From positions 271,242 to 335,241 of the forward strand of contig JAFRNM010000001.1 of the NCBI GenBank assembly GCA_017430135.1: 64,000 bases of DNA. The letters are read 5' to 3'. Numbering within the stretch: position 1 is the stretch's first letter; every line of letters begins with the position of its first letter. This stretch comes from Clostridia bacterium (GTDB lineage Bacteria; Bacillota; Clostridia; TANB77; CAG-508). The notes under the pieces are model-generated. The model was not told where the DNA came from. It saw only the letters and a list, made by a program, of their open reading frames with translations, and made no database searches. Both the position numbers and the translations under genes were made by a program. Shown in pieces: positions 30,503 through 36,063 of the stretch.

Positions 30503-30530
30503 AAAATTCGGCAGTAGCCGAATTTTTTTG
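30503..30530 (+). terminator. rho-independent terminator after xerD
   Basis: attcggc agta gccgaat followed by T7. Confidence 0.6.
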
Positions 30531-30597: not shown

Positions 30598-30686
30598 AAA
30601 AAGAAAATTAGTTTTTAAAGAATACTTGCAAAGTATTCTTTTTTCATATAAAATAATTAAAACAGAGGCAATTAGGAGGAAGATAG

Positions 30687-31685
30687 ATGGACGAAAATAA
30701 TCTAATGAGTCCCAATATAGAAAGTACACAAGAAGAGAGACTAGAAAATTCTTTAAGACCGCAAACATTAGAAGAATATATTGGACAAAGTAAAGTAAAA
30801 GAAAATATGAAAATTTATATAGAGGCTGCCAAAAAAAGAGAAGAGGCTTTAGACCATGTTCTTTTATATGGACCTCCAGGGCTTGGAAAAACTACGCTTT
30901 CAAATATTATTGCAAATGAAATGGGGGCAAATATAAAAATAACATCTGGTCCTGCAATAGAAAAACCTGGAGATTTAGCTTCAATTCTAACAAATCTTTC
31001 TGAATATGATATTTTGTTTATAGATGAAATACATAGAATAAATAAGAATGTAGAAGAAATTTTGTATCCCGCAATGGAAGATTACACATTAGATATTATG
31101 ATAGGAAAAGGACCAAGTGCAAGGTCAATAAGACTTGATTTACCGAAGTTTACTTTAATAGGTGCAACAACAAGAGCAGGTTCATTAACAACCCCTCTAA
31201 GAGATAGATTTGGAATTGTACATAGACTTGAATTATATTCAATTGAAGATTTAACAACAATTGTAAAAAGAACAAGCAAAATATTAGAAGTTGAAATAGA
31301 AGAAGATGCGGCAGTAGAAATTGCAAGACGTTCAAGAGGAACACCTAGAATTGCAAATAGGTTATTAAAAAGAGTTCGTGATTATGCAATGGTCTTAGGA
31401 GATGGAAATATTACTCTAAAACTTGCCAAAATGGCTTTAAATAAGCTTGAAATAGATGAACTTGGCTTGGACGAAATAGATAGAAAAATACTAGACACAA
31501 TGATAGTACAATATGCAGGGCGCCCAGTAGGAATAGAAGCATTAGCAGTAACAATAGGAGAAGAAGTTGAAACAATAGAAGATGTATATGAGCCATATCT
31601 AATCCAATTAGGCTTTATTGCAAGAACAATACGAGGAAGACAAGTACTTCCACCAGCATATAAACATTTAGGGTATGAGGAGTAG
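30687..31685 (+). CDS. ruvB: Holliday junction branch migration DNA helicase RuvB
   Basis: [25 protein letters not shown] Walker A, sensor motifs. 332 aa. Confidence 0.88.
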
Positions 31686-31690
31686 TGAAT

Positions 31691-34000
31691 ATGATAACTG
31701 AAGAAAAATTAAAACAAATTTGTGATGAACATAATATTAATTGTAAAAAAATAATTCAAACTAATCCTAATATTTTGGAATATGGCGATACTAATGATAT
31801 TTTATATGTATTAGACTTTTTAAAGCAAAAATTAAATATAGAAAGTAAGAATATAGAAAAATGTCCAAGTATTTTATGCTTGGCAATAGAAAATGTAAAA
31901 AATAATTACATGTTCTTGAAAGAAAAAGAAATAAATGAAAATGATGTTGAAACATGTTTACATATATTATCAACAGAACCTATAGAATTAAGAAAAACGT
32001 ATGAATATATAGAAGAAAATTATGGATTAGAATATTTAAATAAATATACAAGTATTTTAAGAGTTAATGAAGAAAGAATCAAGGATATAGAAAATAGATT
32101 TACAGAGTTTAGTAAAGTTCAAGTGCTTCAAGCATCTATATCAAGAAGAAAAATAGAAGAAATTGAAAAATTAGTAGAAGTATGTAAAAAGAATGAGATA
32201 AAATTAACAGGCTCTGTATTTCCTAAAACAGCAGAAGAAATAGAGAAAATAGTAGAAGTAGCTAAAGAAAATAAAATAGAACTAACAGGTTCAGTGTATC
32301 GAAAGACAGCAGAAGAAATAGAGAAAATAGTAGAAGTATGTAAAGCAAATGAAATAGAACCGAAGGGAAATGTATTTTTAAAAACAGCAGAAGAAATAAA
32401 GAAAATAGTAGAAGTATGTAAAGCAAACGAAATAGAGATAACAGCTTCAGTATTTCTAAAATCAGCCGAAGAAATAGAAAAAATAGTAGAAGTATGCAAA
32501 AAAAATGGAATAGAACCTCAAGGGAATGTATTTAAAAGAACAGCAGAAGAAATAGAGAAAATAGCAGAAGTATGTAAAGCAAATGAAATAGAGCTAACAG
32601 GTTCAGTATTTCGAAAAACAGCAAAAGAAATAAAGGAAATAGTGGAAGCGTGTAAAGAAAATAAAATAGAGCTAACAGGTTCTGCATTTTTAAAAACAGC
32701 AGAAGAAATAGAGGAAATAGTAAAAGTATGTAAAGAAAATAAAATAGAGTTAACAGGTTCAGTATTTCTAAAACCAGCTACAGAAATAGAGAAAATAGTA
32801 GAAGTATGTAAAGCAAATGAAATAGAACTAACAGGTACAATATTTCTAAAAACAGCAGAAGAGATAGAAAAAATAGTAAAAGTATGTAAGCAAAATAAAA
32901 TAGAGCCAAAAGGAAATGTATTTCAAAGAACAGCTGAGGAATTAGAAAAAATAGTAGAAGTATGTAAAGAAAAAAGAATAAAACCTGAAGGATCAGTATT
33001 TAAAAGAACAGCAGAAGAAATAGAGGAAATAGTAGAGGTATGTAAAGAAAATGAGATAGAATTAACAGGATCAGTATTTCTAAAACCAGCAGAGGAAATT
33101 AGGAAAATAGTAGAGGTATGTAAAGAAAATGAGATAGAACTAACAGGTTCAGTATTTAGAAAGACAGCAGAAGAAATAGAGAAAATAGTAAAAGTATGCA
33201 AAGAAAATAAAATAGAGCTAACAGGTTCTGCATTTTTAAAAACAGCAGAAGAAATAGAGGAAATAGTAAAAGTATGTAAAGAAAATGAAATAGAACTAAC
33301 AGGTTCAGTATTTCTAAAATCAGCTACAGAAATAAAGAAAATAGTAAAAGTATGTAAAGAAAATGAAATAGAGCTAACAGGTACAGCATTTCTAAAAACA
33401 TCAGAAGAGATAGAAAGAATAGTAAAAGTATGTAAAGAAAATGAAATAGATATGATAGGCTCTGCATTTTTTAAATCATCCGAAGAAATAGAGAAAATAA
33501 TAGAAGTATGCAAAGAAAATAAAATAGAACTAACAGGTTCTGTATTTTTAAAATCAGCAAAACAGTTAAAAGAAAATGTTGATTATATAAAAGAAGAGTT
33601 TGGAAGTGAGTACTTAATTCCACTTATAGTGTCTAAAAATAATGGAACATTAAAAAAAGTATTGCCATATCTAAAAGAAAAAGGGTATTTAGAATATGTA
33701 AAAGAAAGTGCCTCAATTTTAAGCTTAACATTAGAACAAATACAAGAAAGAGAAAAATTCATAGAACAGCAGGGACAATCGATTATTGATGATAGAGGAA
33801 AATTTAATTCGATATTTGGATTATCAAAAAAGAACTATGAAAAAAGAGTGGCAAAAACAGTAGGAAGGCCTTCAAGCGAACTTGTGGAAGTAATAAAAAA
33901 TGTTCCAGTAAATGAAGTGATAAATGGTAAAAAAGTATTAGATGAAATTACAACAGAAAAAACAAAGGAAGGAGAAACTATAGATGGAGAGAGTCGATAG
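31691..34000 (+). CDS. tandem-repeat protein: about 18 near-identical 26-aa repeats (KTAEEIEKIVEVCKENKIELTGSVFL) flanked by unique N- and C-terminal domains
   Basis: GAGGAG RBS 9 nt before ATG 31691. 78-bp periodicity from about 32150 to 33560 stays in frame. N-terminal domain shows a related motif. Confidence 0.6.
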   Translation: MITEEKLKQICDEHNINCKKIIQTNPNILEYGDTNDILYVLDFLKQKLNIESKNIEKCPSILCLAIENVKNNYMFLKEKEINENDVETCLHILSTEPIELRKTYEYIEENYGLEYLNKYTSILRVNEERIKDIENRFTEFSKVQVLQASISRRKIEEIEKLVEVCKKNEIKLTGSVFPKTAEEIEKIVEVAKENKIELTGSVYRKTAEEIEKIVEVCKANEIEPKGNVFLKTAEEIKKIVEVCKANEIEITASVFLKSAEEIEKIVEVCKKNGIEPQGNVFKRTAEEIEKIAEVCKANEIELTGSVFRKTAKEIKEIVEACKENKIELTGSAFLKTAEEIEEIVKVCKENKIELTGSVFLKPATEIEKIVEVCKANEIELTGTIFLKTAEEIEKIVKVCKQNKIEPKGNVFQRTAEELEKIVEVCKEKRIKPEGSVFKRTAEEIEEIVEVCKENEIELTGSVFLKPAEEIRKIVEVCKENEIELTGSVFRKTAEEIEKIVKVCKENKIELTGSAFLKTAEEIEEIVKVCKENEIELTGSVFLKSATEIKKIVKVCKENEIELTGTAFLKTSEEIERIVKVCKENEIDMIGSAFFKSSEEIEKIIEVCKENKIELTGSVFLKSAKQLKENVDYIKEEFGSEYLIPLIVSKNNGTLKKVLPYLKEKGYLEYVKESASILSLTLEQIQEREKFIEQQGQSIIDDRGKFNSIFGLSKKNYEKRVAKTVGRPSSELVEVIKNVPVNEVINGKKVLDEITTEKTKEGETIDGESR
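32150..33560 (+). repeat. 78-bp tandem repeat array, about 18 units, coding
   Basis: High unit-to-unit nucleotide identity. Generates spurious antisense ORFs. Confidence 0.8.
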
Positions 34001-34442
34001 TAATTATAGAAAAGCATTTGTAGAAGTAGACGCTGTTTTGAATTGCTTGAATACAAATGCTTACAATAAAATTCCTTTAAATGTGATTAATGCAATAAGA
34101 GACAATAAAGATGAAAACTACCAATATGAATATGATGAAAAAATAGAATATTATAAATGGAATTTTATGAATGAAACAAAAGCAATTTTATATAATTTAT
34201 TCAAAAAGTATTTAGCAACAGAAGAACAAATTAAATATTTTATAGAAAAAGAAAGAAAAGAATTATATAAAATTGAAGAAGAAAAAAGAGAAAGATATAA
34301 TGCTGAGGATTTATTTAAAAATAAGAATATACAAAATAATGTGGCTGAAAATGTAAACAGTCAAAATGTAGAAATGATAGCTCGTAAAGAATCTTTAATA
34401 AAAAAGATTTGGAAGAAAATAAAAGCTATATTTAAGAAATAA
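33984..34442 (+). CDS. hypothetical protein, 152 aa, overlapping the repeat-protein gene by 17 nt
   Basis: Lys/Glu-rich. No motif recognised. Confidence 0.4.
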   Translation: MERVDSNYRKAFVEVDAVLNCLNTNAYNKIPLNVINAIRDNKDENYQYEYDEKIEYYKWNFMNETKAILYNLFKKYLATEEQIKYFIEKERKELYKIEEEKRERYNAEDLFKNKNIQNNVAENVNSQNVEMIARKESLIKKIWKKIKAIFKK

Positions 34443-34518
34443 ATTTTATTTTGGGATGGGTAAAAAAATATCTTTTGGTGTTTTTGTGACCCGTTCCCAA
34501 AAATTCCCCTAAAAACCC

Positions 34519-34547
34519 TTGAAATTAAAAAACTATTGTGATACAAT
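34519..34547 (+). promoter_or_regulatory. sigma-A-like promoter (TTGAAA, 17 bp spacer, TACAAT) for eno with a leader of about 200 nt
   Basis: Hexamers read directly from the sequence. Confidence 0.4.
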
Positions 34548-34650
34548 ACATTTTGGTTTTAATAATACCAAATATTATAAGGCTAAATAGCCAAGGGAGA
34601 AGAGTTTGAAAAATAATTGGCGAATTTCGTTGTTGAACTGTACTCAGTAA

Positions 34651-36063
<1,413 letters not shown>

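Follow-up and report, generated by a model that had tools for sequence, protein, structure and literature searches.

What is a bacterial protein that consists largely of 26-residue tandem repeats, and what might it do? The question is raised by gene X, which encodes a 769-residue protein within a stretch of 64,000 nucleotides (hereafter, the window) from contig JAFRNM010000001.1 of the Clostridia bacterium assembly GCA_017430135.1. Our results place gene X in a family that is a 26-residue, two-helix form of the recently recognized prokaryotic tandem-repeat proteins resembling mTERF proteins and transcription activator-like effectors (TALEs). Given the mTERF homology of its N-terminal cap, structural matches to TALEs, the variability of a single position in the repeat unit, the precedent of the prokaryotic pTERF proteins, and the gain and loss of whole units, we propose that the gene X protein is a nucleic acid-reading solenoid of the pTERF/mTERF/TALE type. 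In this proposal, to which we give an even chance, position 1 of each unit would be the specificity residue and turnover of units would retarget the protein.

The initial annotation described a protein-coding tandem-repeat gene with a 78-bp period and about 18 units, and that description stands. Tandem Repeats Finder returned 18.0 copies of a 78-bp period (32155-33559, 80% matches, score 1668), and all 18 units are in phase with a spacing of exactly 26 residues. The array is less uniform than had been claimed, however. Instead of being near-identical, the units share a mean pairwise DNA identity of 80.1% (range, 68-96%), and units 8 and 15 are the sole pair to reach 96%. Likewise, the Cys that was called invariant is found in 17 of the 18 units, with Ala in unit 2, while the TGS motif, also called invariant, is found in about 12 and is represented elsewhere by PKGN, ITAS, PQGN, TGT, PEGS, or MIGS.

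A search of 5.8 billion proteins yielded at least 288 homologues of gene X, all unnamed or labeled "hypothetical" and nearly all metagenomic, and the family carries no Pfam or NCBIfam annotation. Its common architecture comprises an N-domain of approximately 150 residues (with the motifs NIEKCPSI and ETCLHILST-P), a variable number of 26-residue units, and a C-domain of approximately 100 residues (with SASILxLTLEEIxER and FNSIFG). When we scanned one genome per species, 132 relatives were found in 77 loci, all of them from uncultured gut or rumen metagenome-assembled genomes labeled Bacilli, Clostridia, Mycoplasmatota/Tenericutes, or Erysipelotrichaceae, including "Clostridium sp. CAG:302" and "Mycoplasma sp. 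CAG:877." Open reading frame (ORF) calling and clustering revealed that the family is multicopy, often with two to four tandem paralogues, and that its members carry from 3 to about 33 units. One relative stands apart: a 1981-residue ORF (L019:1598-7543) joins part of a family member (the final third of its N-domain, 11 units, and its C-domain) in frame to about 1500 unrelated N-terminal residues, of which a sampled stretch is of the Cna-B/adhesin type in appearance, and this may be a real fusion or a misassembly.

Across 1572 units from 206 family proteins, conservation depends on the position within the unit. Conserved residues are Lys/Arg at position 2 (87%), Thr/Ser at position 3 (82%), Glu at position 6 (95%), Ile at positions 7 (88%), 10 (96%), and 19 (89%), Cys at position 14 (99%), Gly at position 23 (90%), and Phe at position 26 (98%). 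Entropy is far greater at position 1 (3.26 bits) than elsewhere in the unit, and the residues there are Leu, Arg, Lys, Tyr, Asn, Gln, Met, and others.

The predicted structure gives this pattern a physical setting. An AlphaFold2 model of the gene X protein, made with 56 sequences, is all-alpha with a mean predicted local distance difference test (pLDDT) score of 86.5. Within the modeled unit, DSSP assigns a 13-residue helix to positions 4-16, a six-residue loop to positions 17-22, a five-residue helix that begins at position 23 and ends at position 1 of the following unit, and a two-residue turn to positions 2-3, such that the short helix passes into the long one through positions 1-3. In TALE repeats, a variable di-residue occupies the loop between the short and long helices, and residues that contact the backbone start the long helix. 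The hypervariable position 1 may therefore correspond to the base-reading loop of TALEs, an analogy that rests on the order of secondary structure elements rather than on superposing individual residues. The Cys sits midway along the long helix with hydrophobic positions around it and is probably a packing residue.

Comparisons with known structures led to a class assignment. All of the top 40 Foldseek matches to the model were TALEs, with E-values down to 2.4e-6. Among its structural neighbors, the tabulated scores were highest for dTALE2 (11.0, with 304 residues aligned) and MTERF1 (10.9), followed by BurrH (10.1), MTERF3 (10.1), mS93 (9.1), and MTERF4 (8.4), and then by TOD6, MTERFD2, AvrBs3, PthXo1, and mL121 (5.9-7.8). 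The model shares with mTERF proteins an all-alpha superhelix of stacked motifs and with TALEs the stacking of two-helix units into a superhelix, and the predicted fold is thus that of an mTERF/TALE-like alpha-solenoid. The initial annotation could not assign the repeat to TPR, Sel1, ankyrin, LRR, or PPR, and in this it was right, as none of these was among the Pfam/NCBIfam matches or the structural neighbors. It had also set mTERF aside, and there our results differ: the modeled fold resembles that of mTERF proteins and TALEs, and the domains that flank the array are homologous to mTERF.

Evidence for mTERF ancestry comes from the N-terminal cap. On its own, this domain scored 20.6 bits against the Pfam mTERF family (PF02536; E = 2.4e-4), short of the gathering cutoff of 23.1 bits, and an mTERF match at E <= 0.01 was obtained for 18 of 42 family N-domains, the best at 5e-5. 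When an N-domain profile was compared with Protein Data Bank (PDB) sequences, it matched MTERF3 (3m66; E = 8.6e-6), MTERF4 (E = 0.005), AvrBs3 (E = 0.0064), and, more weakly, MTERFD2 and MTERF1. A phmmer search with the 151-residue domain against 1.84 billion representatives returned only 174 proteins at E <= 0.001. Its distant matches included P0356 (E = 1.6e-8) and P0383, P0384, P0389, P0395, and P0396 (E = 1.3e-6 to 9.4e-6), and these proteins score 34-132 bits on Pfam mTERF. That the search reaches Pfam-positive mTERF proteins shows that the cap is an mTERF homologue by sequence, although it lies just below the Pfam threshold. The full-length protein gave no mTERF match in the Pfam scan because repeat-inflated spurious matches dominate. 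We rejected the whole-protein Pfam/NCBIfam matches to DUF1980_C, SAP_new25, FAD_binding_4, ribosomal S10, and others, which were subthreshold and arose from one short segment scored 18 times, along with EtpA, the sole whole-protein match among PDB sequences, which reflects low-complexity repeat matching.

The cap and the repeat are themselves only distantly connected. The initial annotation had seen a motif in the N-terminal domain that is related to the repeat, and a comparison of the unit profile with the N-domain upheld this only weakly (hhalign probability, 8.5%). The C-terminal cap, in which the motifs SASILSLTLEQIQERE and FNSIFG are conserved, is basic (pI 9.0) and has weak internal similarity to the N-domain. 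Beyond it lies a tail that is restricted to the closest relatives, among them the 430-residue, five-unit P0031, with pLDDT values of 48-73 in its last blocks.

The same N- and C-terminal caps also surround arrays of other periods: 28-residue units in P0298 and P0364, 29-residue units in P0371, and 30-residue units in P0355 and P0391. The consensus of these units is quite different (e.g., LLTPxIWxKxAxQIxDILxLDVWKEEKF), and the family with 26-residue units thus represents a single branch of a wider group. The caps define a superfamily within which the repeat unit was replaced or remodeled several times. The distant match P0356 (MBI1969848.1, 711 residues) is from a Candidatus Woesearchaeota archaeon and reaches 81.6 bits on Pfam mTERF. 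Its scores indicate that mTERF-type proteins are also present in DPANN archaea, a group with small genomes, contrary to widely made statements such as that of a 2026 survey, according to which fungi and prokaryotes lack mTERF proteins (PMC12977773).

The closest described proteins are the pTERFs, prokaryotic mTERF-like tandem-repeat proteins found in the genome of a "Clostridia bacterium" from the rumen (Hu et al., Nucleic Acids Res 2024, PMC11417379). Based on SELEX, electrophoretic mobility shift assays, and bio-layer interferometry, pTERF1 binds the double-stranded DNA motif ACTNNNAGTC with a Kd of 1.87 nM, and pTERF2 binds a different double-stranded DNA motif (PMC11417379). Because of this nanomolar binding to specific double-stranded DNA, pTERF is the best functional precedent for gene X. 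Both groups come from rumen or gut metagenome-assembled genomes labeled "Clostridia bacterium" or Bacillota, and both consist of tandem homogenized helical repeats with mTERF-like features, a variable number of units, and an AlphaFold-predicted solenoid. Yet they differ in several respects. pTERF proteins have 3-11 units, each given as three helices, and about 47 homologues (PMC11417379), compared to at least 288 homologues and up to approximately 33 units in the gene X family. The identifier of pTERF1 (TR_35_C32_2) points to a 35-residue period, so that a 35-residue, three-helix unit contrasts with one of 26 residues and two helices. Finally, the mTERF motifs of pTERF lie inside its repeats, whereas the mTERF signal of gene X is in the nonrepeated cap. 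These distinctions are drawn from published descriptions, and pTERF may or may not belong to the superfamily that the caps define. The gene X family is a second prokaryotic mTERF-like family besides the one small family reported in 2024, and a larger and more regular one.

Gene X can be set apart from canonical mTERF proteins and TALEs as well. The mTERF motif is approximately 30 residues long, with two helices and a 3-10 helix, a Pro near position 8, and leucine-zipper-like heptads (PMC11417379). The gene X cap has motifs of the CPSIL type, and the array consists of 18 homogenized 26-residue, two-helix units without Pro, in contrast to the degenerate motifs with a conserved Pro that are typical of mTERF. 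TALE units are 33-35 residues long and vary at the di-residue 12/13. In structural alignments the gene X protein is 7-13% identical to TALEs, its units do not follow the TALE consensus, and its caps are mTERF-like rather than TALE-like. No secretion signal, nuclear localization signal, or activation domain, all features of TALEs, was seen in the gene X protein. Nor was a signal peptide or membrane segment found in its sequence, and we propose that the protein is cytoplasmic.

If the gene X protein reads nucleic acid, its stacked units would form a superhelix along the ligand, most likely double-stranded DNA and possibly RNA, with each base or base pair read by about one unit. The specific contact would come from position 1, and the backbone would be held by Lys/Arg at position 2, Thr/Ser at position 3, and the N terminus of the long helix. 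Unequal recombination that adds, removes, or reshuffles whole units would then change both the length and the sequence of the target site. A per-unit code of this kind would yield a new scaffold of compact size for the programmable targeting of DNA or RNA, would bear on the origin of the mTERF fold, and would imply fast-evolving regulators in abundant, uncultured gut bacteria. A stronger version, in which no natural one-unit-per-base module is smaller than the 26-residue unit, position 1 constitutes a simple DNA or RNA code, and gut Bacillota retarget these proteins through the shuffling, gain, and loss of units, strikes us as rather unlikely. If true, it would represent a second, independent bacterial TALE-like code, derived from mTERF and about a quarter shorter per base than that of TALEs. 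If, instead, the protein does not bind nucleic acid, its repeat would still be unusually short for a natural alpha-solenoid and polymorphic in unit number.

Several observations weigh against nucleic acid reading. First, Foldseek TM-scores versus DNA-bound TALEs are low (0.15-0.25), and the overall superhelix of the model is thus unlike that of a TALE wrapped around DNA. Second, the unit itself is isolated in sequence: its profile found no significant match among PDB sequences and no significant similarity to mTERF or TALE repeats. The suggestion that the unit lies outside the known solenoid families consequently survives for the 26-residue unit, which has no profile match, and fails for the whole protein, which falls into a known structural class. 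Third, a pI of 5.15 and a net charge of -26, of which the repeat region alone accounts for -19, make the protein acidic, which is unusual for a nucleic acid binder. Fourth, Leu, a poor base-reading residue, occupies position 1 in 9 of the 18 units. Last, the neighboring genes differ by lineage, with ruvB here and mutL and Fic, a UvrD-like helicase, or holA and addB elsewhere, so that gene context lends no functional support.

Even if a nucleic acid is bound, it could be RNA instead of DNA, with the paralogues serving ribosome biogenesis or particular transcripts. MTERF3, MTERF4, and several plant mTERFs have rRNA or introns as their targets. Nevertheless, we regard RNA as quite an unlikely ligand. 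The only prokaryotic relatives to have been assayed, pTERF1 and pTERF2, bind double-stranded DNA (PMC11417379), and a fast-changing number of units in multicopy paralogues is better suited to variable targets than to conserved rRNA. The acidic charge is of no help in choosing, since it counts equally against RNA and DNA.

The acidity is more readily accommodated if the protein, like many alpha-solenoids, is a scaffold or adaptor that binds other proteins, in this case without contacting nucleic acid, a role that draws attention to the small genes beside the family. The most frequent of these, s92, encodes a very acidic protein of approximately 90 residues (pI about 4.3) with the motif EIYG...LGFxDxEDIFER...FKxKxNKLIxxLGxNYVxIIEND. 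Among loci L001-L082, it adjoins family genes on the same strand in 62 loci, and its profile is related to two N-domain motifs (hhalign E = 3.6e-5, probability 71%). A second, p152, adjoins family genes in 9 loci, has 167 unnamed homologues, and is predicted to be helical with a Lys-rich amphipathic C-terminal helix; no fold match was found for its structure. The copy in the window is 100% identical to MBR0490707.1 (locus tag prefix IJJ82). Partners of the solenoid could therefore be s92 elsewhere, p152 here, or other proteins, and the acidic surface, the recurrence of s92, of p152, and of a third small neighbor, p116, and a superhelix unlike that of DNA-bound TALEs all fit such a role. The closest structural and sequence relatives all bind nucleic acid, however, and a single hypervariable position beside a conserved basic residue resembles a read-out pattern and not a general docking surface. 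Moreover, s92 was not found anywhere in the 64-kb window, yet gene X is intact both here and in the identical contig L083, with a nonsense single nucleotide polymorphism in contig L085. On balance, we think a pure scaffold improbable, though by no means negligible, and continue to favor nucleic acid reading.

The third small neighbor, p116 (112-125 residues), lies between family paralogues in one clade (L004, L005, L015, L016, L026, L049, L056, and L061), and its Lys-rich amphipathic N-terminal segment, GIFYKILLKIKQIFRRKK, resembles the C-terminal helix of p152. The gene order in relatives, ruvB..X-s92-X-p152..eno, together with the missing s92, raises the idea that gene X of the window may be a recombinant of two tandem paralogues from which s92 was lost. 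Its identity to the two paralogues is 75.5% versus 79.5% in the N-domain and 87% versus 86% in the C-domain, values too close to separate them.

Charge also underlies another alternative, namely, that the protein is an acidic nucleic acid mimic, a charged rod that occupies DNA-binding enzymes in the manner of ArdA, Ocr, and pentapeptide-repeat proteins. The strong net negative charge and the regular recurrence of Glu at unit positions 5, 6, 8, 12, 16, and 20 are what would be expected of such a decoy, as is the proximity of DNA-repair genes (ruvB here; mutL, uvrD-like, holA, and addB at other loci). We consider this alternative very improbable. Acidity is not conserved, given that pI across the family has a median of 5.96 and reaches 9.0; the repair genes vary from lineage to lineage and are of a kind that is common where genomes are small. 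PADLOC (defense systems) and PHROGs (phage families) yielded no matches for X, p152, s92, or p116, and to our knowledge, the known DNA mimics have folds different from that of gene X. We likewise dropped recurring DNA-repair neighbors as a functional clue in general.

The prediction of length polymorphism in the initial annotation was supported. In 275 pairs of homologues, the N- and C-terminal flanks are >=95% identical (often 100%), yet the lengths differ by whole multiples of 26 residues, including the allele series 426/452/478/504/530 and 445/471/497/523 residues. At the locus itself, contig L086, which is about 95% identical to the window, lacks 546 bp, or exactly seven units (window 32701-33246), with the deletion junction between units 8 and 15, which resemble each other more than any other pair. 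This length variation is most simply explained by recombination between units. Collapse during short-read assembly would look alike, in L086 as in the other cases, and many related contigs end inside arrays.

Those broken contigs also bear on whether the array could be an assembly artifact or a decaying gene with no function. In the same species, L086 is frameshifted at an A8 tract within unit 5, which may be a slippage site or a short-contig error, and contig L085 carries G33527T, a nonsense change (E613*) in the last unit that may reflect an error in sequencing or a null allele present in nature. Still, we find an artifact or a decaying gene exceedingly hard to credit. Contig L083, possibly from the same sample as the window, reproduces 4114 bp (ruvB, X, and p152) at 100% identity with all 18 units, while L085, which comes from another sample, also has 18 units and matches without a gap over the part that it covers. 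Furthermore, none of the 18 units interrupts the frame despite differences of 20% in DNA, the core residues E6, I10, C14, and F26 are 95-99% fixed at sites where synonymous differences are common, and the same architecture is kept in more than 288 homologues.

Table 1. Coordinates of gene X, its parts, and its neighbors (window positions unless a locus is named)
Feature	Position	Strand	Basis or remark
Gene X (769-residue repeat protein, predicted all-alpha solenoid)	31691-34000	+	ORF
N-terminal cap (residues 1-151), motifs NIEKCPSIL and ETCLHILSTEP	31691-32143	+	mTERF homology
Repeat array, 18 x 78 bp (residues 152-619)	32144-33547	+	Codon phase, unit table
A8 homopolymer within unit 5	32498-32505	+	Frameshift site in contig L086
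C-terminal cap (residues 620-720), beginning with a degenerate 19th unit	33548-33850	+	Family conservation
Acidic C-terminal tail, lineage-specific (residues 721-769)	33851-33997	+	Low-confidence model
Shine-Dalgarno-like GAGGAG, 8 nt 5' of ATG 31691	31677-31682	+	Sequence reading
ruvB (332 residues), 5' neighbor of gene X	30687-31685	+	ORF list
p152 (conserved 152-residue gene), 17-nt overlap with 3' end of gene X	33984-34442	+	ORF list
AAGGAG, ribosome-binding site of p152	33969-33974	+	Sequence reading
eno	34759-36063		Position 3' of p152
Terminator-like hairpin, 5' of the promoter-like site and ruvB	30503-30526		Consensus scan
Promoter-like site upstream of ruvB, candidate operon promoter	30626-30654	+	Consensus match only
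Extended -10 promoter-like site before eno	34519-34547		Consensus match only
s92, examples	L006:10341-10610; L001:5705-5974

The arrangement of the locus (Table 1) suggests how gene X is expressed. Its placement between ruvB and eno in the initial annotation was accurate as far as it went, with p152 intervening before eno. The ATG at 31691 is likely the start codon, since a Shine-Dalgarno-like sequence precedes it and homologues start with MI(T/E)E... or MI...; the ORF list also allows an alternative start at GTG 31685, which would give 771 residues. The stop codon of ruvB (TAG, 31683-31685) lies 5 nt ahead of this ATG, and the identical ruvB of contig L083 has the Pfam domains RuvB_N, AAA_lid_4, and WHD_RuvB. 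A consensus scan found no terminator-like sites between ruvB, X, and p152. With ribosome-binding sites, overlapping or abutting ORFs, and terminator-free junctions, gene X is probably expressed within a ruvB-X-p152 operon.

Some minor features complete the picture. Two repetitive ORFs run antisense through the array (32128-32499, minus strand, 123 residues; 32923-33513, minus strand, 196 residues). As genes they are unsupported, and the repeat and AT-rich codon usage, in a window with a G+C content of 28.9%, seem to have produced them as by-products. Rfam identified three tRNAs only across the whole window, none near the gene X locus, and no known RNA family in the 316-bp spacer before eno (34443-34758). 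This spacer contains a G+C-richer stretch at approximately 34620-34700.

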